A stretch of DNA of 64,000 nucleotides, from contig NC_057719.1 in assembly GCF_004010195.1 (NCBI RefSeq), positions 43,392,732 to 43,456,731 of the forward strand, read 5' to 3'. The notes beneath the pieces were generated by a model, which was given only the letters and a program-made list of their open reading frames with translations, had not been told where the DNA came from and did no database searches. Source of the DNA: Chiloscyllium plagiosum. Its lineage: Eukaryota. Positions within the stretch are counted from its first letter, which is position 1. Each line of letters opens with the position of its first letter. A program made the position numbers and the translations under genes. Positions 1 to 40,881 of this stretch are shown one piece after another.

Positions 1-227
1 ACCTATTGTACTCTATGCTACTCTCTCCCCACCCCCACCCTCCCCTAGCTTATCTCTCCATGCTTCAGGCTCTCTGCCTTTATTCCTGATGAAGGGCTTT
101 TACCGAAACGTCAATTTTGCCTGTCCTCGGATTTTGCCTGTCCTCAGATGCTGCCTGAACTGCTGTGCTCTTCCAGCACCACTAATCCAGAATCTGGTTT
201 CTAGCATCTGCAGTCATTGTTTTTACC
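1..227 (+). mobile_element. Penelope-like element terminal repeat fragment with degenerate hammerhead motif (86-112)
   Basis: Pyrimidine-rich tract, CTGATGA AGGGC...CC GAAACGTC, then GATGCTGCCTGA...CAGCATCTGCAGTC tail shared with other copies. Confidence 0.75.
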
Positions 228-229
228 AT

Positions 230-1060
230 TTGACTGAAGGCAATTGCATAGCCTCACTGAGGACATGCTCTGAACAGAAGAACTCTAGGTCATCCCCCAA
301 CAAAACCCCAAAACAAAACCAAGCCTGGGACAAACAGTTAAAATCTTAAGGTCCGGCTAGCCAGCTATTGTAGTTGCTGCCGGTATGTGTACTTGAGACA
401 GCCAAAAGAAAAGTCCCACTAGACCTAAATAGAATAAGAGAACTCAAAGGCTGGTATCAGGAGAATGCACACTCTGAAAAGTCCACCTACATCTGGTGTG
501 GAACAGTTAAATAGCTTAGCAACATCCAAATCAGAACCAATCAGAATAAACATTCAGTTAAATGGTCACCCGGTTCTAATGAAAGTCAATACCAGCATGG
601 CCATTTCAGTGATCACAGAACTAGTCTTCAACAAAATTAGCCCTGGACTCCAGAGTTCTTATATTTATGCAAGACCTCAACTAGACTAAGAACCTATACT
701 GGGGAACTTTTATAGATTAAGGGTACAACTTCAGTTCTGGCCTCTTATGAGAAGCAACCTACTTGAGCTACAGAGTGAACAAGACCAGATTACACAAATG
801 GGAAGATAAAGTGAGGGTGATGAAAGGTCAAGTGCTGTATGAAGTTTCCTAGGGATGGTGAATTATTATTGAAAGTTCATACATAACCTAGCCTCCATCA
901 TTTCACATTTGCATCAAAGAGTCAGCCTTGGAAATGGTTGTGTAGCCAAGCCACAACTTTCAGGGAAGTGAAGAAACAGGTATCATCCTCTAAGGTTTTG
1001 GCACACTATGATCTACTTTTGACATGTGATTCATCTCTGTACAGCATCAAGGTAGTATCA
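230..1060 (+). mobile_element. Degenerate Ty3/Gypsy LTR-retrotransposon pol remnant
   Basis: ORF 465-689 resembles an aspartic protease (LNGHPVLMKVNTSMAISVI, decayed DTG motif), followed by RTYTGE and later LAHYD-like pol segments; frameshifts and stops. Confidence 0.6.
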
Positions 1061-1074
1061 GCTCATCATGGAAT

Positions 1075-1362
1075 CCCTACAGTGTGGAAACAGGCCCTTT
1101 AGCCCAACAAGTCCACACCAAAGAGTAACCCACCCAGATCCATTCCCCTACCCCTAATAACCTACACTATGGACAATTTAGCACAGCCAATTCAACTAAC
1201 CTGCACATCTTTGGATTATGGGAGGAAACTGGAACACCCAGAGGAAACCCATGCAGACATGGGGAGAATGTGCAAACTCCCCAGTCGCCCAAGGCTGGCA
1301 TTGAACCCAGGTCCCTGGTACTGTGAAGCAGCAGTGCTAACCACTGAGCAGCCATGCCGCCC
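1075..1362 (-). mobile_element. HE1-like tRNA-derived SINE (V-SINE)
   Basis: Minus strand has A/B boxes (TGGTTAGCA..., GGTTCAATGCC), central V-domain-like sequence and CR1-type tail. Confidence 0.8.
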
Positions 1363-1381
1363 TTATTATCTTTTAAATATT

Positions 1382-1682
1382 GTAACTGTACTTAGTATCT
1401 CACACTTCCTCTAGCAGCTCATCCCACATATGAACCAATCTGTATGAAAAAGTTGCCCCTCAGGTCCCTTTTAAATCTTTTTCCTCTCATCTTATACTTA
1501 TGCCCTCTAGTTTCGAACTTTCCTAACCTTGGTAAAAAAAATTGTTATTCATTTTATCTATGCCTCTCATGATTTTATACACCTCTCTAAAGGTCATCCC
1601 TCAACCCCCTATGTTCGAGTGGAAAAAAAGTGCCAGCCTATCTATATAACTCAAATCCTCCAGTTCAGGTAACATCCTTGTT
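1382..1682 (-). mobile_element. CR1 LINE 3' fragment
   Basis: Reverse complement of the CR1 ORF2 C-terminal region seen elsewhere in the window. Confidence 0.7.
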
Positions 1683-4033: not shown

Positions 4034-4039
4034 TTTATT
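4034..4039 (-). terminator. Candidate VCPKMT polyadenylation signal AATAAA
   Basis: AATAAA on the minus strand ~93 nt after the stop, followed by a U-rich run. Confidence 0.5.
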
Positions 4040-4131
4040 TCTGTAGTGGTTATTGATAATAACACTCTTATAAGAACTGCCTTTTTACATCATGGTTGAA
4101 ACTTTTTGGTTATTTGAAAACAAAAGCAGCC

Positions 4132-4242
<111 letters not shown>

Positions 4243-4419
4243 CTAAATAAAACAAGAAAAGTTAACATTGAAGTACATGCAATCAATACATAAAGAAAGT
4301 CTGAGTTCAAAACCAATTGAACATAAATCTCTTTCTTTTTTAAAACAGTTAAGCTGAATAAATAATGTACAAAAGTCTAAACCCTATGGACATCTACATG
4401 CCTAGACAGTAACTGGGAC

Positions 4420-4685
4420 AAAGTGAGGACTGCATGTGCTAGAGAGTCCATCTTCCTTCCCACCTATCCGCTCCACTCTCCACACCAACTTATTACAATC
4501 AGCTCCCACCTCCATCCACCTATCGCCATCCCACCTACTTTCCCCAGCCCTACCCCCCATTTACCCCTTAGCCTCCTTTTCCCTCCACAGTCCTGATGAA
4601 GGGCTTATGCCCGAAAGATTGACTCTCCTGCTCATTGGACGCTGCCTGATCTGCTGTACTTTTTTTTGCACCACACTTTTCAACT
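4420..4685 (+). mobile_element. Penelope-like terminal repeat with hammerhead motif (4589-4624)
   Basis: AGTC CTGATGA A GGGC TTAT GCCC GAAA GA TT GACT; short inverted tail piece at the 5' end. Confidence 0.75.
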
Positions 4686-5007
4686 TGGTACAGTAATGCC
4701 AACAGCAACATGGTCTTCAACATCTTGACCGCTAAAAATAATTTCTCTTTTATATATGGTCAAACATAAATCAATCTTAGGTTCAACCACTAAGGAAAAT
4801 TAACTCAAATTAAAAATAGAAATGTCTCCCAAATACTATGCAAGTAAAATTATTGCTATCTTTCTGACTACATTTTACAAGTGATCTCAGCGAGCAACAC
4901 ACCATAGAAGCAGACTATTTGTCCCACCATTTTCTTCATAAATTTATTATGGAGCAAATTCTAATTGCTGGTTTGTTCCTACTAAAGCTACAGCATTAAC
5001 CAGATTA

Positions 5008-5235
<228 letters not shown>

Positions 5236-14135: not shown

Positions 14136-14683
14136 TGAAACAAAAACAGCCATAAAACATCAGTAAATTGGTTATGTAGCTACAATTCACCCAATAATCT
14201 ACAGAATGAACACAAGTTCAGTAGGGGTAATGGTCATGACACTTGCAACATTTAATATTTAGTGTAACCAATAATGTCCTGAAGATACAGCATGTAGAAT
14301 GCAAGTTGCTTAAACGAAACAAAGTATTGGAGACACTCAGCATGTGTAGAGAAACAGAGTCGACATTTTCAGTCCCTGTTTGTCAAGAGGTTCTGATAAA
14401 GTCACTGTTTGTCAAGAGGTTCTGATAAAGGGTCACTGGATTCGAAACATTTAATCTAGTTCTGTGTACCAATGCTACCAAACCAGAGTTCCTCCAGCAC
14501 TTTCTGCATGTGTTTCTGATTTTCAGTATCTGCAGTTGTTTGTTCATGCACGTTACTTATCTCAGTTCATCTGAAAAAAAGTGAAAGACCAACAATAATC
14601 TATTCATTCCCATGAGTTCTTCAGAAGGTGACTACAGCTTGGAATTGGTTTCAATTTTAGGAATAGGCCTTGCTCTGACATTA

Positions 14684-14813
14684 GGCGAAAGTGAGTACTG
14701 CAGTTGCTGGAGATTAGAGTCAGGAGTGTGGTGCGGGAAAAGCACAGCAGGTCAGAGCAGCATATGAGGAGCAGGAGAATCAACGTTTCGGGCAAAAGCC
14801 CTTCATTAGGACT
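14684..14813 (-). mobile_element. 130-bp hammerhead-headed PLE-derived element with 15-bp TSD
   Basis: TSD CTTGCTCTGA(C/T)ATTA at 14669-14683 and 14814-14828; minus strand begins AGTC CTAATGA A GGGC TTTT GCCC GAAA CG TT GATTC. Confidence 0.8.
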
Positions 14814-15091
14814 CTTGCTCTGATATTACATATACATCTAGAGGACCCACAACAGCTGTTTCCTATACTACTGAATTGGTGAGGGCACCTTTCTGTAGCA
14901 AAGGAAAGATAAAAGATCTTTTAAGACGATAAATTTTAGGGGAATTAGGAGTAGGGTTAATCTATTAGGGCAACATGGAATAGAGTGGAAGCGACTCCTA
15001 TACAGCATAAAGATTGATACTGTCCGTCTAGCTTGTTTCAGGAAATTCAGGCATCACCACGAACACAAAACTAGTGCAGAGGCGAACTTTA

Positions 15092-15337
<246 letters not shown>

Positions 15338-15996: not shown

Positions 15997-16042
15997 AAAC
16001 AAAATCCATACTCCTGCCACCCTTGTTGCGATTCCAGGTCAG

Positions 16043-16227
16043 TGAAAGTGAGGACTGCAGATGCTGGAGATCAGAGTCGAGAGTGTGGTGCTGGAAAAGC
16101 ACAACAGGTCAGGTAGCATCAGAGGAGCAGGAAAATCGACCCTTCGAGCGTTTGCCCAAAATGTCACTTTTCCTGCTCCTCAGATGCTGCCTGACCTACT
16201 GTGCGTTTCCAGCACCACACCCTTGAC
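16043..16227. mobile_element. Degenerate palindromic PLE-derived element
   Basis: Inverted arms of the same tail family; decayed ~16-bp flanking repeat (16027-16042 / 16228-16243, 3 mismatches). Confidence 0.7.
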
Positions 16228-16615
16228 TGCAATTCCAGTTAAGCTGAATATGCTTGTAATATGGTCTTGTACAAGATGCCTTTGGATAGAGTCAAACTTC
16301 AACATTTGTTTCCTCACTATACAGAATCAAACTATTTGACAATATACAGACACACCATATATATATGTTTTTTAAAATGAAGAATGTATACTTTTAAAAT
16401 AAAGAGAATGCATCTTGCTGTGTAGTAGGGTAACTGCTTGGTCCAACATGGTACAGGAAACCACTTCCTTGGCTCAGTAGAATAGACATTTGTATTGGAA
16501 CAAGTATATTTCATGATAGCAACTAATTTCATACACGAGCTACATTGAATGCTGTGCGCTTTTATTCCCATTTTCCATCGTCTGTCAGGTTTAATCTGGA
16601 TATTAATAGCCCCAA

Positions 16616-17388
16616 CTGAAAATGTGTTGCTGGAAAAGCGCAGCAGGTCAGGCAGCATCCAAGGAGCAGGAGAATCGATGTTTCGGGTATGAGCCCTTCT
16701 TCAGGAATGAGGAAAGTGTGCCAAGCAGGCTAAGATAAAAGGTAGGGAGGAGGGACTTGGGGGAAGGGCATTGGAAATGTGATAGGTGGAAGGAGGTTAA
16801 GGTGAGGATGATAGGCTGGAGTGGGAGTGGGGGCAGAGAGGTCAGGAAGAAGATTGCAGGTTAGGAAGGTGGTGCTGAGTTCGAGGGTTGGGACTGAGAC
16901 AGGGTGGGGGAGGGGAAATGAGGAAACTGGAGAAATCTGAGTTCATCCCTTGTGGTTGGAGGGTTCCTAGGCGGAAGATGAGGCGCTCTTCCTCCAGCCA
17001 TCATGTTGCTATGGTCTGGCGATGGAGGAGTTCCAAGGACCTGCATGTCCTTGGTGGAGTGGGAGGGGGAGTTCAAGTGCTGAGCCACGGGGTGGTTGGT
17101 CTGGGTGTCCACCTTCCTAACCTGCAATCTTCTTCCTGACCTCTCTGCCCCCACCCCCACTCTGGCTTCTCACCCTCACCTTAATCTCCTTCCACCTATC
17201 ACATTTCCAACGTCCCTCCTCCCTACCTTTTATCTTAGCCTGCTTGGCACACTTTCCTCATTCCTGAAGAAAGGCTTATGCCCAAAACGTTGATTCTCCT
17301 GCTCCTTGGATGCTGCCTGACCTGCTGCGCTTTTTCAGCAACACAATTTCAGCTCTGATCTCCAGCATCTGCAGTCCTCACTTTCTTC
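16616..17388 (-). mobile_element. 5'-truncated Penelope-like element with inverted terminal repeat, GIY-YIG C-terminus and 15-bp TSD
   Basis: Minus strand HPVAQHLNSPSHS..DMQVLG (frameshift) ...LEEERLIFRLGTLQPQGMN; ~250-bp inverted arms, each with a hammerhead motif; TSD TATTAATA(G/C)CCCCAA 16601-16615 / 17389-17403. Confidence 0.88.
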
Positions 17389-19504
17389 TATTAATACCCC
17401 CAAGGTAATTCTAACAACAGAATATGCCCAATTTTTTTTATTAAAGCAAATTCCACTAAATAATGCAAATGTCTTCCCAAATTATGCTTATACTCACAAA
17501 ATGAACCCTTTTATGCAAAATTGTCTGAAGATCGGACTAGAACAGGTGATCAGTGTGCTCAGTCTCAACTTCTAGGCATCGATCAAATGACCTCTTCCCA
17601 AAGCAAGCTGATTTTTGCTGTGAGGCAAAGCCCTTCTTTGTACTCTTTCCAGAAGCTATGTATTTACACTCTTGACGTTGTGCAATCTCCAGCAAAATAT
17701 CAGTTTGGAAACACATCATAAGTATGTCATTTTCCACACTGGTTTGATTAATGAACTCATTAAGACTTGCTAGTGTCTCCTAGGAAAGAGGCTGAAAGCT
17801 TGCTCTTAATGAACTCTGAACTCGGCTTAGTTTACGGACTCTGATCACTTTTATGTCAGGCAATTAACAGTATGATATTTGTACAGCACAATTCCATTAA
17901 AATTCAGCTGAAAAATAGTCAGACCCGATTCATTCTTTTAAACAAAATTTCAACTTGAGTTACTGTGACAATTCAGTCAATTACTGCTGAGTTACAAAAT
18001 TTGATGTAAACACACATTCCTGAGCAAATCAGACGCACTTTAAAATCAATGACATCTTTAAACCCCAGGCTTTATATGTTTCTCCATTCTGTACCCCAGC
18101 TTTTCTGCTCCTGAACGTTAAATTCACTTGTGACTTTTGTACCATTCCAGCCACCCTCTCACCTTTCAGCCTCAATTAAGGTCAGTACAGTCGACATAAC
18201 TGTGCGTCCTTACTCTCATAGAAGTTCCATTAAGCCATCATCCATGTACTGACTGGCCTACATTAGTCTATATTGAGTGCAGCAACTCAATTTAAAGATT
18301 CTCACCCTCATTCTTAAATGATTTCACCCCAATTTCTTCAAACTATACAAGCCATCAAATCTTTGCACTTGTCCAGAACAGTCGAAATCGATCTCCAGAC
18401 TTTATGTTTCTTAAATGTTCACCAAGTTCTCTCTCTTTGACCAAGCATTTTTTCATCAGACTTGATATCTAATTCAGTGTCATATTTGATAATGAATTAC
18501 TGAAGCATTTTGAAATGTTCTTTCTTGAAGGATTTATAATACAAATGAATTTATAATACTATCCACTGATTTACTAGTTGGTGTTCATGATTTTTTCATG
18601 CAGAGGGTGATGAGTATATGGAATGAGCTGCCGGAGCCAGTGGTGGAAGCTGGTACAATTACAACATTTAAAAGGCATCTTGATGGGTATTTGAATAGGA
18701 AAGGATGTGGGCCAAATGCTCAGAAAGCTGATTACAGGTTGTTCTGCTCTAAGACACATTTCCTCAATGTGAATTCACTGTAACATGATTGATGAATTAG
18801 GAATGCTGTTCCTAAAGCACGAACTTTTAAAACATGTGTTGGCTATAATGTATTAGATCGCCAACACTTTAAGTGCGATTTTTCTACAGTGCAGGGTTGC
18901 ACAAGACCAAATGTATACTTATTTAGGATATCTGGTCATCTGTTTCCATGCTTGTACAATTCTATTACTCTAAGTCTACTCTGTAGGTTGTGCACTGTTT
19001 CCTCAGTGTAGACAAGTTCATAATCACATGGTAAACTCGAGAAACATCTTACCTGTTTCAAATAGCAAATGGAACAAATCAAAGATCATCAAATCACTAC
19101 TATATTCAATGATCTAGATTTACCTCATCCATCATGCACTGGCATACAAGATGCATTAGTAAGACAATGGAGATTATTAATGATATCTAGTTACCTTTCC
19201 CAAGAAATACCGTACTATCCATTCTGTACAGTCTACCCCTCAGTAACAAGAATATAACTGACCTATTACAAACACAATATCCTCAACAATCAAATGCAAA
19301 ATGCCACATTTTCCATTCCCTTACATATATAGCCAGGTCTTAACTGTTTCAGTCATACTTCCAGCTGAGGGCTGAGTATGTCATCCAAATTGTCAAGGCC
19401 TACCAATTCTTCTAAGGAAACCTTTTCAGAATAAATTTACGATTTGCATCTCTCAACATGAAAATCTTCAATAAGGTTTGACTCTTATGCAAAGATGAAA
19501 ACAT

Positions 19505-21352: not shown

Positions 21353-21838
21353 TTAGTGTAAGTGTGGAATTTCTGCATTTTCCAGCAATGGCAGTCCACC
21401 TCCGTGCAAAGGAGGATGCGATAATTCTCGTTTGTAAGTCTTTGGTGGAAGTTTTGGCAGCAGTGGACTAGAGTTCTGTCTGGGAGGTATAGGAGGAGCA
21501 GAGGAATAAATAGGGTTATTGTGGTTTGAACGTCGTTTAATCATGGGAGATGGTGTTGGAGGAGGAGTCCTGGGGGAAATAAGATTTGTGCCTGATTCTC
21601 TGTACCAGTCTTGATCTCGATATAGGTGGCTCTTTGGTGCTGGCTGGATATTGAAAGGATCGTTCATGAAGTGCTCAGGAGGCCTTAGTGGTATGGGTGG
21701 AGGTGTATCAGGCAACGGATCCCTCGGAGGAGGTGGAGGAGGACTGTGCAGTAGCCCATCTGAGTGAACATGTAATCCAGGAACCCGAGGCAACCGAGGT
21801 GGAATAGCAGGAGGACTATCTGGCATATTTGAAGCTGT
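21353..21838 (-). CDS. SOS2: SOS2 exon 23 coding part (proline-rich Grb2-binding tail, stop)
   Basis: [50 protein letters not shown] and LPLLENAE are SOS2-type; adjacency to VCPKMT as in human supports SOS2 over SOS1. Confidence 0.95.
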
Positions 21839-21974
21839 CTGTAAATAAAGAGATGAAATTCTAGTCAGAATTCCTTCCAATTAATTAAGTTGAAATGACA
21901 AAAACATGAAATTGAGAATTCAACAGAACAATCATTAGTAATTGTAAACCTAACAACAATGAAGCAAATAAAAA

Positions 21975-22150
21975 CCCGAAAGAGCTGTGGATGCTGTAAA
22001 TCAGAAACAAAAACCGAAATTGCTGTGAAAGTTCAAAACGGGGGTTCAGTTCTGAGGAAGGGTGATTTGATCTGAAATAGTAACTCTGATCCTTCTCCAC
22101 AGATGCTGCCAGACCTGTTCAGCTTTTCCAGCAATTTATGTTGTTGTTTT
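21975..22150 (+). mobile_element. Older PLE-derived element with decayed hammerhead (22048-22085); relatives at ~14290-14545, ~7200-7320, ~30335-30450
   Basis: AGTT CTGAGGA A GGGT...ATCT GAAA...AACT followed by CCACAGATGCTGCCAGACCTG tail. Confidence 0.6.
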
Positions 22151-23749
22151 TGTTTGTAATAGTTCAATGTTCAGGCAGGAATCCACTTCAAGAAAAGATC
22201 AGAATTGGACATTTGCAAGTGTGTTTCACACAAATTATATCACTGAAAAATTACACAACTTATATTAGGATAAAAGTGAAAAATAGCAGGAATACCTGCA
22301 GGAAAACTAAGTAGCACATTGTGCAATGTGGAACTAAACCAACTAATGGGAAGATATTAGGTTCAATCTTTTTATTTTTCCTTTATGGGATGTGAGCAGT
22401 TATTAGATGACAAACATTTTATACCCATCCCAGGCTATCTTTTGAGTCACCTTCTGAACTACTGCAGTCCAGTGGTATAGATATACACATAGTGCCACAA
22501 AGAAGTTACAAGTTTTTGATCAAGCAACCACAAAGTACAGCAACACAATTCCAAGTCAAGATGGGAGAGGCTTGGTAGACAACTTATAGTTAGCAGTGTC
22601 CCATGTACCTGCTGTTCTTATCCTAAGTGATAGAGGTTGTAGAATTGGAAGATGGTATCAAAGGAGCCTTAGCATGTCTACTTCCCTCATTAACAAATTT
22701 GCTATCACTATCTTCCACACTTCTTCCTCTCTCTGAAGCTCCAAAACACTGATCTTGAATTGCTCCAGCTGGAGGCATTGCCTGCACACATTGTTATCCA
22801 GACTGCCAGGACAGTTGAGGGTTTCCCAGATAGTGCAAGATGTGAAAATCACAGGCCTGAGCTCCCAAACATACTTTAACTAAATAGAAAATAGACTTTT
22901 GCTTTTATTTTACATTTACTCCTATAAAAAAATCTTATTCCTGCTTATAGACAATAGAGTTCCACTTAGGGAAACTGGAAATTAGGTCTTCACAGTTGGT
23001 AATCTCTGGATTACTTACCTTGCCCACTCTTATTGACGATGGTGTCTGCCTTTCACAGGGTCCTCTTAATGAGGTAGGGCTCTCATTATGCAACGATCAA
23101 ATGGATGATTCAACCCGGTTTGTCAGACTAGTGAGTTATTGGTTTTATAATAGTTACAAAACTAGTGCCAAGCAGTGATCATCTTGAAAAAGAGAGAACC
23201 TAATCTGCTTATCTCTATATTCTATTGTATTACCACCCTTGAATTGTCCATCAGCTGCATTCTTAAGTTTCAAAGATTTAACTATTTCACACAAATACTC
23301 TGGCTGCAAGAGCAGGACAGAGGCTGGGAATTCTCAAGTAACTCATCTTCTGACTTTCCAAAATCTATCCACCATCTACAAGGTACATTTCAGGAAAACT
23401 GTGATGGAATACTGTCTCCACTTATCTGTATGACTGCAGCTCCAACACTTCAGAGGCTCAATGCAATTCAGTACAAAGCAATCCACTTAAATTGCATCGT
23501 CTACCATCTTAATGCTTTCTCTTCCTCCAGCATGCGGGAATAGCGGCAGCAGTATATATCAGACGCACTGCAACAACTTGCTAAGGCTCCTTTGACACCA
23601 TTTTCCAAATCTACAACCTCAATCACTTAGGATGTCATGGAACAGTTGCAGGGCATTCTGAAGCAGAAGGGTGAACAGCCAGTGACCATGATCCACATTG
23701 GCAGCATATGGAATATATTTTAATGACACTGGGTTAAAGATAAACAATG

Positions 23750-23974
23750 AGGAGAAAGTGAGGTCTGCAGATGCTGGAGATCAGAGCTGAAAATGTGTTG
23801 CTGGAAAAGCGCAGCAGGTCAGGCAGCATCCAGGGAACAGGAGAATCGACATTTCGGGCATAAGCCCTTCTTCAGGAATCCTTAAGAAGGGCTTATGCCC
23901 GAAACGTCGATTCTCCTGTTCCCTGGATGCTGCCTGACCTGCTGCGCTTTTCCAGCAACACATTTTCAGCTCAG
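23750..23974. mobile_element. Near-perfect palindromic PLE-derived element with two back-to-back hammerhead motifs and a 15-bp TSD
   Basis: Arms 23784-23877 and 23879-23972 (94 bp, 2 mismatches, 1-nt loop); TSD TAAAGATAAACAATG at 23735-23749 and 23975-23989. Confidence 0.92.
23843..23882 (-). ncRNA. Minimal type-I hammerhead ribozyme motif (sense in SOS2 pre-mRNA)
   Basis: GGATTC CTGAAGA A GGGC TTAT GCCC GAAA TG TC GATTC: intact core and stem II, GUC triplet. Confidence 0.68.
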
Positions 23975-24830
23975 TAAAGATAAACAATGTTTTGCAAACA
24001 GACTTTAAGGAGTTAGATAAGAAACTGGAAATTAGGTCTTCAAAGCTAGTAATCTCTGGATTATTCCTGTTGTCATGCAGTAGCGAGCAGATGAACGGGT
24101 GGCTAGACAGATGGTGCAGGAGGGAGTTGACTTTATATTCCTGAGGCATTGAGGCTGTTTCCAGAGGGATTGGGAACTGTACAAGTAGAATGAGTTACAT
24201 CTGAACAAGAAAATGACGAACATCCTCACAGGAAGGTTTGCTAAAACCGTTGCTTTGGATTTAAACTAGATTGACAGGGGGAATGGGATCCCAACAGATA
24301 AGGAGCCATTAAGATGGAATTATTTGTTAAAATACAAACAAGCGAATCTGGAAGGCAGAGAAAACTTAAGCTGGATAAGAAGGATGGGAGTTTAACAAAT
24401 ATATGGTGTACATTTTAATGTAAGGTGCCTGAGGAATAAGACAGACAAGTTGAGGGCACAGAAGGTGAGTATGATATGGTAGCTATAGTTATGAATGAGA
24501 TTTGACTGAAAGGCAGACAGGATTGGCAGCTCAGCATTCTTGGTTACCGGGTATTCAGATAAGAGTGTGTCGAATAGAGGAGGCAAGGGAGGGGCAATCA
24601 TATTGATCAAGCAATCAGTGATTTCTTGGAAAGATCATCAAATGTGTCCATATGCATAAGAGCCAAGATCACAAAAAGGGCAATCATTGCTGGAAGTTTA
24701 CTACAGATCTCTAAACAGTCATGGAAAGATGGAGGATCAAGTATGTAATATTACTACACTTCTCTGAAATTTTAAGGCAGTAATAATATTAAGGGATTTT
24801 AGCCACCCAAATAGTATCCAGGATACTGGT

Positions 24831-25680: not shown

Positions 25681-26728
25681 TGGGGGATAATCTTATTATG
25701 AAATATAGGGAGGGAACAAAATTCTTAAACTGCATCTAGAATAATTTTAGCCAGTATGTAAAAAACCCAACAAGACAGGAGTAATTCTGGGCCTAATACT
25801 GGGAAATTAGCCCAATAATTGAAAGGAATATGAGTAGGGGAGCATTTTGGAGATGGTGACTATAACTCAGCTTTAGGATAATTGCGAAATAGGACAAGGG
25901 TAGGTCAGGAATAAAAGTTACAAATTGGGAAAGACGAATTTCACTGAGATAAGATACAATGTGGCCTGAGCAGATTGGGAGCAAACACTTGCAACTAAAA
26001 CAATGTTGGTGGTTGGTGGTATCCAAGGAGGACATCGCAAGAATTAACGGCCAATAAATTCCCATTATAGCGAAGTTTGGGACCAAGACTGGAAATTCTA
26101 ATTTTCAAGGGGCATAAAGGTCAGGATGATGAAATCAAGTCAAAAAAAAAGTTTATGGCTGATACCAAGAGTTCAATACAGCAAATTCTCATGAGGAATA
26201 ACAAGTGCAAGGGGAAATTTAAAAAGAAAATTAGGAAAACAAAGAGAATGTATGAGAAAGCATTGACTGGTAGAACAAAGGAAAATCCAAAGGTTTTGTT
26301 TAATGCATGAAGAGTGGGGGAAGAAAAAACTATGGAATAAGTAGTGCCCATTAGAAACCATATAGTTAATGTATGTGTGGACCCAGAAGATGCGGACAAT
26401 GAATACTTTACGTTTGTCTTCACAATGGAACAGGTCGCATCAGGTATAGACATCAGGATAGAAGACTAGGCTTGGATGAGATGTCTCCTCGGTTGTTGAG
26501 GGAAGCATGGGAAGAGATATCAAAAACCCTAGTGGTTTGCAAATTCTCTCTGGCCACTGGTGTACTTCCAGAGGACTGGAGAACTGTTAATGTTGTCCCA
26601 TTATTAAAAAAGGAAGGAAGGGATAGACCGGGAAATTACAGCCCAGTCAGTCTAATCACGATGGTATGGATGAATTCTGAGGGTTGGATCATTTCTATGC
26701 TTGGAGAGACAAGGATTAATCAGGGATA

Positions 26729-26810
26729 TGATTTGGAGCGTCGCTCTGAAAGCTAGTGTGCTTCCAATTAAACCTGTTGGACTATTACCTGGTGTTGTGT
26801 GATTTTTAAC
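26729..26810 (+). mobile_element. 82-bp PLE 3'-end insertion with 13-bp TSD
   Basis: TSD TTAATCAGGGATA 26716-26728 / 26811-26823; insert matches ~40855-40930. Confidence 0.85.
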
Positions 26811-27414
26811 TTAATCAGGGATAGTCAGCATGGATTTATTTCGAGAGGGTTGTATTTGAGAAATTTGATCAAATATTTTGAGGAGTTAACTAGGAATACT
26901 GAAGAGGGCAATGCATTTGATGTGGTATTTTTACTGTGTGTCTTGAAATAATTGTTGATTTCCTCACCACCTGCCACAGGCTCATTCTGGCATCTCTGTT
27001 TTGCAGGATTCAGCGCATTTGGTCAGTAAAGATACAACCAAGGTGAACAATGAAATCTTCCAGCTTGTGTACATTCTGTGCCCTTGCCACCCTTAAAGCT
27101 TTTTCCAATTGGTGTTCAGCATAGAGGAATACTGATTTAGATTCATCAGCAGCTGCTGGGGCGGGGGGTGTTCTAGGATATGGCCAGTGATGGTAATGCT
27201 GCTTGCCGCGTGGTACATAGTCACATCACAGAATCACAACAGACTGTAAGGCTATTGATCGAGTATATTGTGCAACAACTCTCCAAATGTTGGCACAAGC
27301 CTTCAGCAGTCGGTAGGTTAGACTTATTCCTAAACAATGTAATGGAAGTTCAATGAAGAAGGAAAGTGTTATTTCAGTATGATTTCACATTGTACCACGA
27401 GATACTTTCTTTAC

Positions 27415-27834: not shown

Positions 27835-29210
27835 CAAAGGAGTGCAAGGTTAAAGGTGGATAAATCCCCTGGACCAGATCAAGTGTACCCGAGAACTCTG
27901 TGGGAAGCTAGAGAAGTGATTGATGGGGCCTCTTTCTGAGATATTTGTATCATCGATAGTCACAGGTGAGGTGCCGGAAGACTGGAGGTTGTCCAACGTG
28001 GTGCCACTGTTTAAGAAGGGCGGTAAAGACAAGCCAGGGAACTATAGACCGGTAAGCCTGACCTCAGTGGTGGGCAAGTTGTTGGAGGGAATCCTGAGGG
28101 ACAGGATGTACATGTATTTGGAAAGGCAAGGACTGATTAGGGATAGTCAACATGGCTTTGTGCATGGGAAATCATGTCTCAGTTGTGAAACTTGAAAGGG
28201 TTCAGAATAGAATTACAAGGATGTTGACAGGGTTGGAGGATCTGAGNNNNNNNNNNNNNNNNNNNNNNNNNNNNNNNNNNNNNNNNNNNNNNNNNNNNNN
28301 NNNNNNNNNNNNNNNNNNNNNNNNNNNNNNNNNNNNNNNNNNNNNNNNNNNNNNNNNNNNNNNNNNNNNNNNNNNNNNNNNNNNNNNNNNNNNNNNNNNN
28401 NNNNNNNNNNATAAATGTGAGGTGCTGCATTTTGGGAAAGCAAATCTTAGCAGGACCTATACACTTAATGGTAAGGTCCTAGGGAGTGTTGCAGAACAAA
28501 GAGACCTTGGAGTGCAGGTTCATAGCTCCTTGAAAGTGGAGTCACAGGTAGATAGGATAGTGAAGAAGGTGTTTGGTATGCTTTCCTTTATTGGTCAGAG
28601 TATTGAGTACAGGAGCTGGGAGGTCATGTTGTGGCTGAACAGGACATTGGTTAGGCCACTGTTGGAATATTGCGTGCAATTCCGGTCTCCTTCCTATCGG
28701 AAAGGGGCTGTGAAACTTGAAAGGGTTCAGAAAAGATTTACAAGGATGTTGCCAGGGTTGGAGGATTTGAGCTACAGGGAGAGGCTGAACAGGCTGGGGC
28801 TGTTTTCCCTGGAGCGTCGGAGGCTGAGGGGTAACCTTATAGAGATTTACAAAATTATGAGGGACATAGATAGGATAAATAGACATAGTCTTTTCCCTGG
28901 GGTGGGGGAGTCCAGAACTAGAGTGCATACGTTTGGGGTCAGAGGGGAAAGATATAAAAGAGACCTAAGGGGCAACTTTTTCACAGAAGGTGGTACATGT
29001 ATGGAATGAGCTGCCAGAGGATGTGGTGGAGGCTGGTACAATTGCAACATTTAAGAGGCATTTTGATGGGTATATGAATAGGAAGGGTTTGGAGGGATAT
29101 GGGCTAGGTGCTGGCAGGTGGGACTAGATTGGGTTGGGATATCTGGTTGGCATGGACAGGTTGGACCGAAAGATCTGTTTCCATGCTGTACATCTCTATG
29201 ACTCTATGAT
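27835..29210 (+). mobile_element. CR1 (HER1-like) LINE spanning an assembly gap
   Basis: VPEDWRLSNVVPLFKKGGKDKPGNYRPVSLTSVVGK, RPLLEYCVQF; CTCTATGA tail. Confidence 0.92.
28247..28410. other. Assembly gap (164 N)
   Basis: Run of N. Confidence 1.
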
Positions 29211-30685
29211 TATACACTAAAGCCAGTGTCAGAGAAACAGTGAGAATGTTTCTTGGATTAGAGAAGGTTAGAGGTAGGGGAAAGGCCTTTGAGAGTTTTA
29301 AACACAAGAATATATTGAGGAATAATGACAAGGAATTTTAAATTTGCAACATTGAGGGACCTTACGTCCATGTTGGTCATCATTAGCTGACATAGAAGGT
29401 AAGTGGAATGAGGTGAGGAATAAGATATTAGAAGTAGAGTTTTAAATGAACTGAATCTTACAGAAGGAAACTGAACAGCACTGAAACAGCTTCGTAGAAC
29501 AAAAATACCAACATGATAAAGGCATGAGTGGAAGATGTCCAAAGGCACGAAGCAAGTGGGTGATATTACAGTTTTGGTGTTGGGGAGCACATGGAGTAAA
29601 ACAAACATTAAACTTTAACTCAAAAAGGATGCAAACTGCCTAGTTCATCTTGAGCAAAGAACCAGGAAAGACAGGTGGAATCATGAGGTTATGGAGCCTG
29701 GGGTTTGCTGAAGTTAATAGTTTTGAACTTTACAATATTTCATTCAAGAAAAGTTTGGCCCAGTTACAACTAGATACTAGATACTAAGAGCATCTTTAGA
29801 AGAGGTGAAGAGAGACAGTCGAGAGTCTATATCATTACCATATATGTGCAGACTGATCCCCATATTTCCCAATCATGTTGCCAAATGGTAGCATCTGAAC
29901 CGGAAGATGACAAAGCCCAAACTTTCCTCACTTTCTCCAAAGCCCAAAGGTAGATCTATTGCGATTCAAAAGTAATGACACAACGGCAGGAAGACAGGCC
30001 ATTGCTAGAAATGCACTGATTACAATTTGATACACGAGTGTAAAACCAAATGAGGGCAATCCCATTAATCTGACATTGGAAGAAATTAAGTCAGTGTCAA
30101 AACCTGCGGAGATTTTAATGAATGTAGCCAGTCAATGACAATGTCATTTATGACGTTATTTAGGTTATTTTTGGTGGTGTGGCAGGGATAGAATCTAAAT
30201 AAAGATTCAAACAATGAGCTGTGGGGGTGGAAATACAGGCATAGTTTTGGAAGGGAAGAATACAATTAAGGATACAAAAAAAGGAAATCTGGAAAGAGGC
30301 ATAATAGCTTTCAATAACAGAAAGACCAAGGATTAAAGCAAAATATTGCAGATGCTGAAAATCTACAACAACCACAGAGAAACTCAGCAGATCTGGCTGC
30401 ATCTGTGGAGACAGAAACAGAATTAACATTTTGAGTATGGTTTACAGAATCAAGGAAAAGACTTTTGAGCAGGTGGCTGCTGATAGTTTTTAAAGGGGAA
30501 CCAGAAAGTGGAAGAATCATATGTGACATAGCTAGCACAGAAGACAATTAGATGGTGAACAGCTTATGAGAATGGGGAGCAAATTTGATTGATGAATTAT
30601 CTTAAAAAAAGGAACAGGAAAGAGAAACTAGAGCAAGATGCAGGGATAAGGGGAGACTGAGGAGAAGTTTTGTTTGATAAGCACA

Positions 30686-32526: not shown

Positions 32527-32617
32527 CTGCAGAAGACACAGGAATAAATGAAAGTAAAAGCACAACAGCTAGAAAATCAGCCACACTTAATGTGTCTAAT
32601 TTCTGCAATGCACGTAA

Positions 32618-32834
32618 GTCAAGAGTATGTTGCTGGGAAAGCATAGCAGATCAGGCAGCATCCAAGGAGCAGGAGAATCGACATTTCGGGCATAATCCCT
32701 TCATCCTGATGAAGGGCTTATGCCCAAAATGCCGATTCTCCTGCTCCTCGGATGCTGCCTAACCTGCTGTGCTTTCCCAGCAACACACTCTCGACTCTGA
32801 TCTCCAGCATCTGCAGTCCTCACATTCTCCTCCC
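32618..32834. mobile_element. Palindromic PLE-derived element with 10-bp TSD
   Basis: Inversion centre CCCTTCATC-CT-GATGAAGGG (CTGATGA at 32706-32712); TSD ATGCACGTAA 32608-32617 / 32835-32844. Confidence 0.88.
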
Positions 32835-33260
32835 ATGCACGTAACCAAATATTTACTAATCATTGTATTTCCAGTAAGGCAATTTTCAATTTTAAAATTA
32901 ATTTTAACCGTTTCTCCTTAAAATACCAGCATTAGCTGAGAAAACATCAGGTCAAAGATTAGATTGGTTTTCCAGTGCCTCAATGTCTTCTTGTGTACAA
33001 ACAAACTGATGTTTCAGCACATACTTCAAATTAAATCTGCAACCATCTGGTCTGTTAGTAAATTAGTCAGTGTCATGACCTATGTGATTTCTGTGGCGCT
33101 ATGAGGAACACACTCAATGATTTTGAAATTTTCTTCAAAAAGATGTCTTGAGTCACATACTTGTCACTTGAAACTTTAAGGTTTTAGAAGGGCAGCTTAC
33201 TTAAGTTTATTAACCCAGTATCAATATTAATGACATGTTACAGAACAAAATGACACTCAC

Positions 33261-35350: not shown

Positions 35351-35358
35351 GGATTAAA

Positions 35359-35607: not shown

Positions 35608-35849
35608 AAATGCTATGGGGAGAAAGCAAGAACAAGGTAGGATCGAAGGCCAAATAGTTTACTCCTGCACCTATTTTCTACATTGCTGTATTTTTAAAAA
35701 GTGAATTAAGCAATAATGTTTAAATGTAAAACCAAGTGGCATACTTATCGACTTTAAGCCAATACCCTCAAATGAATGCAAATTGACTGATGTTCTTCTC
35801 CTCAACTAATGCGACTACTAAAACAAAATCAAAATTATGGGCAACTTAC

Positions 35850-35966
35850 AAAGCGTGGTGGCTGTTTGCAGTTTCGTGGTTCAATTACCAATGATTTGTT
35901 GAACAAATAGTCTGTAAACTCTTTTTCATTTCTGTTCTCCATTGGATTCAGATTTTCAAAGAATTT
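35850..35966 (-). CDS. SOS2: SOS2 exon 19
   Basis: [48 protein letters not shown]; 117 nt; preceded by a 111-nt intron. Confidence 0.95.
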
Positions 35967-36077
35967 CTATGCATTAACACAAACAGATCTTTAATGACTT
36001 TGTGAACTATGTAAAAAATTTATTCTAAAACTGGTAATAAAGGATGAACTTTATGAAAGAAGCACCAAAATAACTAC

Positions 36078-36250
36078 CTTTATGTCAGTCTCCACTTGTA
36101 GGCAGTAGGGCTGATTCTGATACTGTTGAATTTCGCCCGTGATTTCAGCTACTTTCCTTCGTTTGCTAAAATTTATTAGTTCTTTCCCGCATCGTTTTAG
36201 AAAATCTGGATTCCCCACTTCGGTTTTAAGAATATTTGTCAAGTAAATAC
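36078..36250 (-). CDS. SOS2: SOS2 exon 18 (CDC25 helical hairpin)
   Basis: [61 protein letters not shown] acceptor, donor GTAGTT; 173 nt. Confidence 0.95.
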
Positions 36251-36360
36251 CTTTGATCAGAAACAATTCATAAACATTGGTCTTAAAACTTGTCTCCAAT
36301 ATACTTAACTAATTATAAAATAAACTTATTTGGAAGCAACACCTTTTGAAGTGCTTAGGC

Positions 36361-36720
36361 TTACAAAATTATGAGGGGCATGAATAGGATAAATAGGCAA
36401 AGTCTTTTCCCTCGGGTCAGGGAGTCCAAAACTAGAGGGCATAGTTTTAGGGTGAGAGGGGAAAGATATAAAAGAGACCTAAGGGGCAACGTTTTCACAC
36501 AGAGGGTGGTACGTGTATGGAATGAGCTGCCAGAGGATGTGGTGGAGGCTGGTACAATTGCAACATTTAAGAGGCATTTGGATGGGTATATGAATAGGAA
36601 GGGTTTGGAGGGATATGGGCTAGGTGCTGGCAGGTGGGACTAGATTGGGTTGGGATATCTGGTCGGCATGGACAGGTTGGACTGAAGGGTCTGTTTCCAT
36701 GCTGTACATCTCTATGACTG
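36361..36720 (+). mobile_element. CR1 (HER1-like) 3' fragment nested in the PLE
   Basis: ORF 36371-36643 TRGHSFRVRGERYKRDLRGNVFTQRVV; CR1 tail. Confidence 0.9.
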
Positions 36721-37044
36721 TAGGTGGTTGTGGAGCAGGACCATAAGACACAGAATTTCTAGCAAAAGGTTACAGTATAATGCGGTTGAAATATATTAAA
36801 AAACTGATATTAAGTCTCACCTTTTTGAATGGTTTTCCTAGTTTTGGTTTGTTAATATGTAAATCCCAGAACTCCTTTGAAATCACATTCTCAAGATAAC
36901 TTCTGATTTTCTAACAAAATGTGTCATCTCAGCTCAGACGATGTATTAAAGGTGTGAGAATAATGTCTGTCTGTGTCCCAACCTTGAGACAGACTGGTTC
37001 GATTTCTGAATTGGGATTTACAGAATCTTACATGAATTAACTGT

Positions 37045-39835
37045 GTCTCAGAGAGGGTGCCGAATGTTCTCAAAGGAGAGAGGGACCAGCAGGAGGGCAT
37101 TGTACATATTGGTACCAATGACATAGGAAGAGAAAAGGATGAGCTTCTGAAGGGAGAATATAGAAAGTTAGGCAGGAATTTAAAAATGAGGTTCTCGAGG
37201 TTAGTAATATCTGGATTACTCCTAGTGATACGAGCTAGTGAGGGTAGGAATAAGAGGATAGCACAGACGAATACATGGCTGAGGAGCTAGTGTATGGGGG
37301 AGAATATTCCTGGAACTACATCCTGGGAGGTTATTTGGGTGGAACTCAGAAATAATATAGACCCCCTAATAGTCAGCGGGAAATTGAAAAACAAATTTTT
37401 AAGGAGATTTCAGTTATCCCAAACAATAATACGGTGGTTATGGCAGGGGATTTTAACTTTCCAAACACAGACTGGGTCTGCCATAGTGTTAAGGGTTTAG
37501 ATGGAGAGGAATTTGTTATGAGTGTACAAGAACATTTTCTAAGTCAGTATGTTGATGTACCTACTAAAGAAGGTGCAAAACTTGACCTACTCTTGGGATA
37601 TAAGGCAGGGCAGGTGACTCAAGTGTCGGTGGGAGAGCATTTTGGGGCCAGCAAACATAATTCCTTCAGTTTTAAAATAGTGATGCAAAAGGATGGTCCA
37701 GATCTAAAAGTTGAAGTTCTAAATTGGACGAAGGTTAATTTTGATAGTATGAGGCAAGAACTTTCAAAAGCTGATTGGTGCAGATGTTCGCAGGTAAAGG
37801 GATGGCTGGAAAATGGAATGCCTTCAGGAATGAGATAACAAGAGTCCAGAGACAGTATATTCCTGTTCGGGTGAAAGGAAAGGCTGGTAGGGTAGAGGAA
37901 TTGAGGGTTTAGTTAAGAAAAAGGAGGAAGTATATGTCAGGTATAGACAGGATAGATCGAGTGAATCCTTAGAAGAGTATAAAGGAAGGAGTATACTTAA
38001 GAGGGAAATCAGGAGGGCAAAAAGGGGACATGAGATAGCTTTGGCAAATAGGGTTAAAGAGAATCCAAAGAGTTTTTACAAATACATTAAGGATAAAAGG
38101 GTAACTATGGAGCGAATAGGGCCAGCAAGGCAAAGATCAGCAAGGCAACCAATGTGTGGAACCGCAGGAGATGAGGGAGATACTAAATGAGTATTTTGCA
38201 TCAATGTTTACTGTGAAGAAGGACATGTAAGATATAGAATGTGGGAAACAGATGCTGACATTTTGTAAAACGTCCACATTACAGAGGAAGAAGTTCTGAG
38301 TGTCTTGAAACGCATAAAAGTGGGAAGCTGGGAAAGTGATTGCTGGGCCCCTTGCTGAGATATTCATATCATCGATAGTCACAGGTGAGGTGCCAGAAGA
38401 CTGGAGGTTGGCTAACGTGGTACCATTATTGAAGAAAGGTGGTAAGGACAATCCAGGGAACTATAGACTAGTGAGCCTTGACTTCGGTGGTGGGCAAGTT
38501 GTTGGAGCGAATTCTGAAGGACAGGATTTACACATGTTTGGAAAGGCGAGGACTGATTTGGGATAGTCAACATGGCTTTGTGCGTGGGAAATCATGTCTC
38601 ACAAACTTGATCGAGTTTTTTGAAAAAGTAACAAAGAGGATTGATGAGAGCAAAGCAGTAGACATGATCTATATGAACTTCAGTAAGGCGTTCGACAAGG
38701 TTCCCCAAGGGAGACTGGTTAGCGAGATTAGATCTCATGGAATACATGGAGAACTAGCCATTTGAATACAGAACTGGCTCGAAGGTAGAAGACAGAGGGT
38801 GTGGTGGACGGTTGTGTTTCAGACTGGAGGCCTGTGACCAGTGGAGTGCCACAAGGATCGGTGCTGGGTCCACTATTTTTCGTCATTTATATAAATGATG
38901 TGGATGTGAACATAGGAGATATAGTTAATAAGTTTGCAAATGACACAAAAATTGGAAATGTAGTGGGCAGCGAAGACGGTTACCTCAGATTACAACGGGA
39001 TCTTGATCGGGTGGGCCAATGGGCTGAGGAGCGGCAGGTGGAGTTTAATTTCGATAAATGTGATGTGCTGCATTTTGGAAAATCAAATCTTAGCAGGATT
39101 TACAAACTTAATGGTAAGGTCCTAGGGAGATTCCTTGGAATGCAGGTTAATAGCTCCTTGAGAGAGTCACAGGTAGATAGGATAGTGAAGGCTGCATTTG
39201 GTATGCTTTCCTTTAATGGCCAGAGCATTGAGTATAGGATTGGGAGGTCATGTTGCGGCCTTACAGGACATTGGCTAGGCCACTTTTGGAATATTGCTTG
39301 CAATTCTGGTCTCTTTCCTATCGGAAGGATGTTGTGAAACTTGAAAGGGTTCAAAAAAGATTTACAAGGATGTTGCCAGGGTTGGAGGAATTGACATATA
39401 GGGAGATGCTGAATAGGCTCAGGCTGTTTTACCTGGCGTGTCGAAGGCTAAGGGGTGACCTTATAGTGGTTTATAAAATCATGAGGCGCATGGATAGAAT
39501 AAACAGACAAAGTATTTTCCCTGGGGTCGAGGAGTCTAGAACTAGAGGGCATAAGCTTACTGTGAGAGGAGAAAAATAGAGAAGGGCCTAAGGGGCAGCA
39601 TTTTCACACACAGGGTGGTGCGAGTATGGAATGAGCTGCCAGAGGAAGTGGTGGAGGTGGTACAATTGCAACATTTAAAAGGTATCTGGATGGGTATTTG
39701 AATAGGAAATGTTTGGAGGGATATGGGCCAAGCGCTGGCAAATGGGACTAGATCAGGTTGGGATATCTAGTTGGCGTGGACAAGTTGGACCAAAGGGTCT
39801 GTATCTGTGCTGTACATCTCTATGACCTTATGACT
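37045..39835 (+). mobile_element. Long CR1 (HER1-like) LINE nested in the PLE: ORF1 esterase-like region, APE and RT, disabled
   Basis: VHIGTNDIG/VISGLL (ORF1), MAGDFNFP/LDLLL (APE), GVPQGSVLGP and FANDTK (RT; FADD mutated); frameshifts and internal deletions. Confidence 0.92.
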
Positions 39836-40840
39836 GTACGTTATGTATTTTTTGAACAAAATAAAATATAATTCTGCAAATACACATTCAATCCATAAAC
39901 TTATATGTGTGTGCATGCAGGAGAGACAGAGTGAGTGTGTCTGTGAGAGTGTGAGTGAATGTGAGAGTGTATGTGTATGCATGGTAAAGTATGTGTGTGA
40001 GTGTGATGGGGTATAAGCCTGTGAGGGTGCGTGCATGGGTGTGATTGTGGGGCGTGTATGTGTGCCTATGAGAGAGGGTGTATGCTAGTTCAAGAGAGCG
40101 CATATAATGTAGTGGGGTCACCTATAGTGTGACATGAACCCAAGGTCCCGGTTGAAACCATCCTCATGGGTACTGAACTTGGCTATTAGCCTCTGCTTGG
40201 CCACTTTGCATTATTGCTTATCCAAAAGTCCACCTTGGAGAATGTCCCAGGCCGGTGAAGTATTCCCCGACTGGGAGGGAACACCCTTGCTTGGTGATTG
40301 TTGCGCAGTGTACATTCAACCATTATCGTAGCGTCTGCTCTGTCTCGCAAATGTACTATGCCCCAGGGCATGTCTCTCACACATTCTTTACCAAGCTTAC
40401 ACATACACGTATACACTCTCGCTCACATGCACTCACACTGACTCTGTCTCTCCGACACGCGCACACATATGTTTATGGGACTAATCTGTATTTGCAGAAT
40501 TTTATTTTGCTCAAAAAATGCATAACCTCCAGTCAATCCATATAAGATTCTGTAAATCCCACTTTCGAAATAAAACCAGTCTGACTCAAGATTGGGACAC
40601 AGAGTTACTTTAACCTCACACCTTTAATGCACTGTCTAAGCTGAGATGACACATTTTGTTCGAAAACCTAAAGTTATCTTGAGAATGTGACTTAAAAGGA
40701 GTTCTGGGATTTACATAATAACAAACTGAAACTAGGAAAACCATTCTAAAATGTGAAAGATTTTAAGTGCTTAATATATTTCAGCCGCATGATACTGTAA
40801 TCTTTTGCTATAAATTCTGTGTCTTATGGTCCTGCTCCAC

Positions 40841-40881
40841 AACCACCTGATGAAAGAGCAGCGCTTCGAAAGCTAGTGGTT
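40841..40881 (+). ncRNA. Minimal type-I hammerhead ribozyme motif in a PLE terminal repeat
   Basis: AACCAC CTGATGA A AGAGC AGC GCTTC GAAA GC TA GTGGTT: 6-bp stem I, intact core, palindromic AGCT stem III, CUA triplet; A-C mismatch at the base of stem II. Confidence 0.7.

Follow-up and report, generated by a model that had tools for sequence, protein, structure and literature searches.

Decayed hammerhead ribozymes in the terminal repeats of Penelope-like elements of the shark Chiloscyllium plagiosum, probably left by run-off cDNAs of uncut RNA

A stretch of 64,000 nt of contig NC_057719.1 (the window) from the 3.56 Gb genome of Chiloscyllium plagiosum carries ten dispersed hammerhead motifs. 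They are, almost beyond doubt, minimal type I hammerheads of Penelope-like elements (PLEs), and all ten sit in the terminal repeats of these elements (pseudo-long terminal repeats, pLTRs). We think it probable that the copies are decayed hammerheads in the pLTRs of at least three PLE families and that most of them are run-off cDNAs of uncut RNA starting at stem I, since the copy ends cluster at the motif's front edge and are only weakly in excess at the cut site.

The initial annotation of the window had listed about ten hammerhead copies, assigned them to at least three families and taken PLEs to be their carriers. All ten were found at the coordinates and on the strands given there, and all ten are matched by family profiles derived from the genome. 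The inventory was nevertheless incomplete, as the same profiles yielded further copies at 14418+ and 30441- (family B), 16157-/16147+, 26735+ (family C) and 32705-, the last being the partner arm of 32706+. Three families are present in the window, but eight of the ten motifs belong to a single superfamily A, with one motif each of family B (22048) and family C (40841). By self-comparison family B is related to A, having a downstream stem in common, and 40841 represents a third family.

Chance motifs were ruled out as an explanation by descriptor counts far above those of shuffled sequences, both in the window and in a sample of 140 stretches of 10 kb taken at round coordinates on large contigs (1,347,475 non-N bases). 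In the window, a strict type I descriptor had one perfect match (C3 at 4593), against none in 40 dinucleotide shuffles. With one core mismatch allowed there were eight matches, only four of them members of the repeat families, against a mean of 0.58 and a maximum of 2 in the 40 shuffles. A looser descriptor gave 132 matches in the 140 stretches against 8–12 in five shuffles, and 49 against 0–2 when a stem I of at least 3 bp was demanded. The scan with Rfam covariance models that had been suggested in the initial annotation returned no hammerhead match in the window at E values up to 10; the microRNA-like Rfam matches in the window are the fold-back insertions.

The profiles matched 433 times in the 140 stretches (family A, 236; B, 104; C, 75; D, 18). 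This density of about 320 per Mb, or about 20 per 64 kb, bears out the very high density that had been claimed from the window, which is itself average for the genome. Extrapolated from large contigs, with small contigs outside the sample, the genome would hold pLTR fragments in a number of about 1.1 million; about 3 x 10^5 of them would have core and stem II intact, and complete family A motifs would number about 10^5.

The PLE origin is shown by GIY-YIG fragments, by long copies encoding reverse transcriptase (RT) and GIY-YIG, and by target-site duplications. GIY-YIG fragments flank two sites of the window (protein matches at 16920-17107 and 40117-40370), and target-site duplications of 11–17 bp were found in six of the 13 window units examined. 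The long copies were reached by searches with motif-adjacent DNA and then with RT fragments (69,971 and 25,770 first-look candidates). The family A locus L100 has a frame of 754 aa with RVT_1 (E 9e-8), GIY-YIG (E 2.5e-4, a score just below the cut-off) and a C-x4-C-x2-C linker between RT and endonuclease, and a family A motif lies behind its open reading frame (ORF). Its family C counterpart, L107, shows RVT_1 (E 3e-6), an inverted 5' pLTR and 30% identity to L100. RT and, C-terminally, GIY-YIG are joined in one ORF in L100 and L101, the latter likewise beside a motif. A complete intact ORF from start to stop was not recovered among the long copies; assembly gaps occur in many of the long PLE copies fetched, and complete elements are thus under-represented.

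The CX2-5CXXC linker reads C-x4-C-x2-C in L091, L100 and L101, and its first cysteine is changed in the single copy L107. Linker and host range point to Neptune- or Nematis-type PLEs for families A and C. The pLTRs are direct or inverted, with a tail of 30–40 bp at one end. Hammerhead and tail are continuous with the 5' untranslated region and an ATG about 35 nt past the tail in nine of 29 loci fetched by DNA of the ORF N-terminus; one of these (L261) was counted from coordinates, and the continuity surfaced only with this targeted search. L254 starts 4 nt before the core on unique flank, and L252 and L275, which are partial tandems, retain the upstream pLTR part.

A homologue search with the element protein gave only unnamed or uncharacterized proteins, and the closest relatives with a named host occur in Chiloscyllium punctatum, at 82% identity, and in Rhincodon typus, at 70%. 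A PDB sequence search with the family A ORF gave nothing at E values up to 1, and Pfam found no PLE domains on short ORF fragments, only long ORFs scoring. An ORF was linked to none of the families B, D and E, and the autonomous partner of B, its subfamily B15 included, was not found. Families D and E (L147:9877, L197:5696, L213:7221, L188:1218-1259), absent from the window and possibly of Poseidon type, have a stem II that is longer and bulged, and their TATAAA stands about 53 nt ahead of the core. Downstream of the hammerhead, A and B have in common a long-range GATGCTG/CAGCATC stem that closes two small hairpins (window 23925-23940 and the 23765-23775 region; L101:5957-6020) and is a candidate RT-binding or initiation element.

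The fold was compared between subfamilies. From the 433 copies 313 were long enough for clustering, and 149 fell into clusters of at least four. All 12 consensuses of at least four copies keep the core boxes CUGANGA, GAAA and UH (B15 as a U3-A8 variant), and the extra base between 9 and 10.1 and the closing pair G10.1-C11.1 are present. Stem III is a palindrome at 15.1-16.1, ACGT in families A, B and D and AGCT in C, the difference that the initial annotation had noted. The consensus pairs of stem I are ATTC/GAAT, ATTC/GATT (the form of A30/A42, with a U-U mismatch), AGTT/AACT, AGCT/AGCT, CAC/GTG and GCA/TGC; those of stem II are GGGC/GCCC, GGGTC/GACTC, GGAGC/GCTCC and a bulged form. The stems thus vary between families with pairing kept, as the initial annotation had it, but two of the three stem I pairs that it cited are artefacts of single copies. 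Its GAATC/GATTC is a product of junction or flank (at 23875+ the 5' stem I strand mirrors the arm opposite, and the extra G at 14814 is part of the target-site duplication), where the subfamily consensuses have ATTC/GATT or ATTC/GAAT; AACCAC/GTGGTT at 40841 was lengthened by a change in that copy, the family consensus pairing CAC/GTG only.

Compensatory changes in stems I and II, the check that had been proposed for the fold, were found between families: nine of 11 pairs change on both sides, and 92.7% of cells are paired against 67.4% after shuffling and 16–42% with slid partners. These values come from ten representatives that we chose by hand, family C being excluded because of misalignment by MAFFT, and the structure was derived from the same sequences. 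In subfamily B15 the core pair C3-G8 is replaced by U3-A8 in seven copies in the sample (1.35 Mb) and in 20 of 20 top matches fetched; copies of this subfamily, at L164:7848, L182:353, L246:5964 and L280-L299, have an AGCT/AGCT stem I and a clear TATAAA box. A lone family C-like copy, L191 minus 6845, also has U3 and A8 and is indistinguishable from decay.

Since the stems covary between families and a core pair was swapped for U3-A8, selection appears from the comparison to have kept the fold in master elements and not in the inserted copies; the U3-A8 subfamily is good evidence of selection on the masters for the tertiary fold. The youngest subfamily, A29, diverges by 1.1% from its consensus and pairs all 4 bp of stem I; when folded, its first 42 nt counted from -4 form stems I and II and leave the core open, no better than shuffles do. 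Folding of two molecules gave a domain-swapped dimer and not a double hammerhead, which the method cannot represent; the 4-bp palindrome duplex is worth -1.7 kcal/mol.

The statement that every copy in the window bears a substitution holds for all ten. The core is changed in five (14813-, G5; 17260+, G12; 22048+, U16.1; 23875+, G5; 32706+, G12 and U16.1) and conserved in the other five, each of which lacks a stem pair or the stem III palindrome. That palindrome is retained in four copies (86+, 14813-, 23875+ and 40841+) and, except for the G12 change, at 17260+; at 32706+ the 5' stem I strand is absent. The copies decay at CpG sites, and G12 is mutated in 19 of the 114 sampled family A copies that extend to the 5' stem. 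The view that most copies are probably inactive fits the ten window copies, which by their sequences look like inert passengers, but 38 of the same 114 family A copies retain the complete minimal motif. For the copy at 4589+, folding gave the hammerhead secondary structure (z -3.0), and the pair at 23750-23975 folds as a single hairpin of -194 kcal/mol. On these models adjacent copies cannot serve as mutual dimer partners, because they face each other head-to-head on opposite strands and form long hairpins when folded.

The positions of the copy ends carry the argument for run-off. Counted from C3, the predicted cut lies between +27 and +28. The 5' end could be mapped in 212 of the 236 family A copies, 24 being dropped for Ns, edges or a lacking anchor. 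More than half of these ends (111/212) lie at -12 to +8, with the mode at -4, and 33 of the 212 are a few bases inside the core (0 to +8); 16 ends fall at +25 to +32, 13 at -44 to -13 and 36 further upstream. The stop rate per base is 0.10 at -6 to -1 and 0.005–0.011 elsewhere. Among young family A copies 52 of 85 start at -12 to +8 and none of the 85 at -34 to -13, and absent references are therefore not the cause of the pile-up. In family C 35 of 73 ends lie at -12 to +8, with the mode at -9 and one end near the cut. For family B, where few long references exist, reference-based ends were unobtainable and the assignment rests on inspection of 88 copies.

Solo copies that are not inverted begin at the front edge in 48 of 121 cases, and at least one arm does so in 37 of 40 head-to-head pairs, two of which are duplicates in L166 and in all of which the two arms are not independent of each other. 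In 30 of the 40 pairs one arm is tailed and the other stops about 35 nt earlier, which matches the two RT start sites of PAc, the Poseidon element of Anolis carolinensis (PMC11167929).

Promoter-like motifs stand at the same edge. An Initiator-like YYANWYY with its A at -4 was found in 106 of 118 long family A copies, and a TTTAT-type box starts at -35 to -37 (97 matches), 31–33 nt before this A. Family C has BBCABW with the A at -8 (59 of 79 long copies) and a TATA-like hexamer at -38 to -40 (49 matches). In B15 a TATAAA-type box at -33 to -38, about 32 nt before the A, and an A at -4 occur in 20 of 20 long copies, and similar AT-rich boxes stand in several long family B copies. Three unrelated upstream sequences thus share one geometry, an AT-rich box 30–33 nt before the start, and the peak of copy ends follows the Initiator (-4 in A, -8/-9 in C).

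From these data we propose the following course of events. The AT-rich or TATA box and the Initiator-like motif in the pLTR would start transcription by RNA polymerase II ahead of the core, by 4 nt in families A and B and by 8 nt in C. With priming at nicked target DNA, RT would begin downstream of the ribozyme at either of two sites spaced about 35 nt from each other, copy 100–135 nt through the uncut ribozyme and run off at the RNA 5' end. A single cDNA would leave a solo stub, and two cDNAs from two nicks a head-to-head join. Long copies would require either a template jump, from the 5' end onto the 3' pLTR, or a read-through tandem transcript. The ribozyme of the master elements is likely a slow, protein-assisted or dimer-dependent cutter under selection, and the inserted copies would decay as passengers. 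PAc provides precedents in vitro: RT has two start sites, the main substrate is uncut RNA, and insertion does without the hammerhead, which is protein-assisted (PMC11167929). Dimers of PLE hammerheads cut weakly in vitro (PMC4209133), and a dimer claim for hammerheads by Lunse et al. is cited in a review (PMC6765202).

Several observations weigh against start-site run-off. The 16 ends at +25 to +32 are a twofold excess at the cut site (Fisher p 0.03), although 11 of them belong to inverted pairs and lie next to a TCGA palindrome. In family D (18 copies) the 5' ends form no clear pile-up. The ends were taken from alignment extension, with an error of a few bases, and a script found a duplication in only 12 solo family A copies. 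The long copies scored for promoter motifs include loci picked by similarity, which are not independent. The Initiator and TATA consensus patterns and spacing are the textbook ones, Initiator motifs are common in pyrimidine-rich DNA, and the TTTAT box of family A is not a canonical TATA. No peak of RNA starts or ends was seen in 1,565 reads of either orientation from one poly(A) single-cell run; a search of one other sequencing run gave 0 reads. Finally, the Penelope element of Drosophila virilis has a TATA-less internal promoter and an intron before the hammerhead (PMC2377424, PMC4209133), and by this analogy the pLTR layout with a start at stem I would not be universal among PLEs. With these points counted, we still regard a start at stem I followed by run-off as the probable origin of most copies.

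We considered other reasons why the copies could end where they do. In the circle-template model put forward by Cervera and de la Pena in 2014 (PMC4209133) tandem motifs pair via the palindrome and cut, the monomer is circularised and more-than-unit cDNA is made. A main origin of the copies in such hammerhead-processed RNA would agree with a catalytic fold conserved between families, U3-A8 and the ACGT and AGCT palindromes included, with the excess of ends near the cut, with the partial tandems L252 and L275 and with the weak dimer cleavage in vitro (PMC4209133). However, cut linear RNA predicts ends at +28, and from a circle the ends should have no fixed position, whereas the dominant end is at -4, and in the inverted pairs that supply 11 of the 16 near-cut ends the TCGA palindrome gives microhomology. 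We regard this as an unlikely source of most copies; it may hold for the long copies, which are a minority. It also seems quite unlikely that the front edge is a barrier to RT, set by the folded ribozyme or a bound protein, rather than the RNA start. A barrier would explain why the peak stands at the motif edge in A, B and C, why 33 ends lie a few bases into the core and why the single-cell reads show no start peak, but RT would meet the fold from its 3' side (+28 to +32), where stops are few, and stem I is merely 2–4 bp. A transcription start is favoured over a structural barrier because three unrelated upstream sequences share the box and its spacing and the peak moves with them.

The edge could also be a 3' splice site, the copies deriving from spliced RNA or intron products, as the intron of D. 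virilis Penelope terminates at helix I (PMC4209133) and family B has upstream a pyrimidine tract whose last two bases are AG, at -4/-3. The AG is absent there in the young A subfamilies and in family C, most short B15 copies include the AG itself, and the stubs abut flank, duplication or mirror arm with no common upstream exon. A splice site was accordingly rejected as the main cause and seems very improbable to us. That some of the ten are working intronic ribozymes adopted by the SOS-like host gene of the window is hardly credible. Copies do lie in or beside host genes and 4589+ folds as a hammerhead, but each of the ten has a change in core, stem or palindrome, G12 is mutated as often in the sample as CpG decay predicts, and only two arms are in the sense of the SOS-like transcript, both in head-to-head pairs, with the folded sense-oriented arm locked in the -194 kcal/mol hairpin. 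The density, moreover, is the genome average. Host adoption was rejected on the decayed copies, the hairpin locking and this density.

A further-reaching version of run-off, which we offer tentatively as possible rather than probable, is that in the Neptune-type elements of sharks the hammerhead is the literal RNA 5' end, with stem I doubling as Initiator for RNA polymerase II, and that the roughly one million aborted copies are strong-stop cDNA as in retroviruses, made by RT from a start a short way downstream. Full copies would then arise when the cDNA jumps to the 3' pLTR; the stem III palindromes of the 5' and 3' hammerheads would pair the RNA ends, and a cut in the 3' hammerhead would leave a terminal redundancy of 32 nt. 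If true, this would make the pLTR an analogue of U3-R-U5 and not only a by-product of tandem insertion.

The PLE units of the window are collected in the table below. A 17-nt tandem duplication at 113-146 begins exactly one base past the predicted cut site of 86+; this is a single case.

Table. PLE-derived units in the window, with the state of their hammerheads and target-site duplications
Feature	Position	Strand	Remarks
Family A pLTR end	82..227	+	Core from 86; damage in stem II and in the first pair of stem I; upstream part towards the left end of the window
Inverted tail fragment, upstream of the 4589 copy	4420..4445	-	
Old family A pLTR	4508..4705	+	Hammerhead 4589-4624, in the best state among the ten; no fault in core, stem I (AGTC/GACT) or stem II; stem III palindrome lost (GA for CG)
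Family B copy, overlooked in the initial annotation	14418..14538	+	Core at 14422; G8 to A
Solo family A stub	14682..14813	-	First base is the A 4 nt before the core (exactly -4), directly after the 16-bp duplication 14669-14684 / 14814-14829; G5 to A
Head-to-head family A pair, truncated within the hammerhead	16041..16237	.	11-bp duplication 16027-16037 / 16228-16238
Tail-less family A arm	16616..17112	-	End of GIY-YIG ORF (16920-17107), upstream pLTR part, hammerhead; core at 16704, stem II mismatch, palindrome lost
Tailed family A arm	17109..17390	+	Core at 17264; G12 and G10.1 to A; two-arm unit 16616..17390 enclosed by the 16-bp duplication 16601-16616 / 17389-17404
Family B copy with inverted tail fragment upstream	21988..22149	+	Core at 22052; U16.1 lost
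Head-to-head pair of family A with its joint in the 5' stem I strand	23748..23975	.	17-bp duplication 23735-23751 / 23975-23991; minus arm (core 23875) altered only at 15.2; plus arm (core 23881) G5 to T
Family C stub, truncated in stem II	26735..26815	+	15-bp duplication 26716-26730 / 26811-26825
Decayed family B tail fragment	30378..30441	-	
Head-to-head family A pair joined at the core start	32617..32832	.	Plus arm (32706) with G12 and U16.1 changed; duplication 32603-32617 / 32830-32844, matching in part
Family C upstream pLTR part	36722..37043	-	Ends at the hammerhead core start; hammerhead and tail gone
Inverted GIY-YIG fragment of a family C element	40117..40370	-	tblastn E 7e-16 to the ORF of L107
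Family C pLTR	40385..40965	+	TATA-like box about 40 nt before the core, hammerhead and tail; core at 40847, G10.1 to A, AGCT palindrome retained

The minus strand of the window holds exons of two genes. An SOS-like Ras exchange factor is represented at 21353-21880, 43509-43862 and 57768-58649 (PH, RasGEF and a proline-rich tail), and the majority of the hammerhead copies of the window are intronic in it. A lysine methyltransferase exon (Methyltransf_16, E 2e-16) lies at 15092-15334; by the synteny with SOS2 in human it is probably VCPKMT. Fragments of CR1-like long interspersed nuclear elements are abundant. Two long copies, at 47536-49872 (-) and 61433-63452 (+), are about 90% alike, inverted and 12–16 kb apart, and one of them has an open frame of 385 aa with RVT_1; a run of 164 N lies inside a CR1 copy in the region 28246-28410. 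The PLE insertions at 36722, 39830 and 16002-16044 start no more than a few dozen bases from CR1 3' ends, possibly by target preference, or by chance where repeats are this dense.

The kind of element is already published (PMC4209133), and the present case is a further instance, in a shark. No report on shark PLE hammerheads, on copy ends marking the start or on a strong-stop model was found in a search that had most subscription papers and the Repbase reports outside its range. One supplementary file of PMC4209133 does not name cartilaginous fish; another, which possibly lists shark motifs, lay outside the search. The function of PLE hammerheads is called unclear in the available text of PMC8557442. 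The shark genome offers a natural data set of hundreds of thousands of copies from several families, some of them young (about 1% divergence), in which the copy ends let the genome reveal the start of the PLE RNA, the start of RT and whether the ribozyme cut. They argue that the copied RNA was mostly uncut and predict a precise start at -4 or -8, which bears on the role of PLE hammerheads and on the origin of pLTRs.

The motifs agree with the minimal hammerheads of metazoan PLEs, including Xena, Poseidon and Neptune of fish, in the core boxes, the extra base at 9/10.1, the G10.1-C11.1 pair, the palindromic 15.2-16.2, the short helix I, the mostly solo copies and the opposite-strand pairs 100–700 bp apart; the U3-A8 variant is given there from Schistosoma (PMC4209133). 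They differ in their host, a cartilaginous fish, in a stem II of 4–5 bp instead of 7–8 and in number, the extrapolated 3 x 10^5 intact-core motifs standing against about 9,000 in Xenopus tropicalis and about 4,000 in coelacanth, counted with other descriptors; in its available part the earlier study does not relate copy ends to a start site (PMC4209133). Like non-LTR retrozymes, they are type I hammerheads in PLE-linked, non-coding animal repeats; up to 120,000 retrozymes are given for axolotl, again with different descriptors (PMC7229834), and one chondrichthyan genome with retrozymes is described (Li et al. bioRxiv 10.64898/2026.07.22.740005, as far as available). Retrozymes, however, are head-to-tail tandem units, whereas the copies in the window lie dispersed, as single or head-to-head pieces of pLTR accompanied by ORF remnants, and retrozyme arrays were rejected for the window, where same-strand copies lie 1.1–17 kb apart with unrelated spacers. 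PAc likewise has its hammerhead upstream of the two RT start sites, which define a 30–40 bp tail, and uses an uncut RNA substrate with both target strands nicked and extended, as is proposed here; its ORF begins inside stem II, whereas the ATG of family A lies about 35 nt past the tail and about 165 nt past the core, and families A and C differ from it in their Neptune/Nematis-type linker (PMC11167929). With the endonuclease-bearing Neptune-clade PLEs (as defined by Craig et al. 2021, PMC8557442) the shark elements share RT, the CX2-5CXXC linker and the C-terminal GIY-YIG with two cysteines between GIY and YIG, as well as pLTRs, partial tandems, inverted 5'-truncated copies and a tail at one end.

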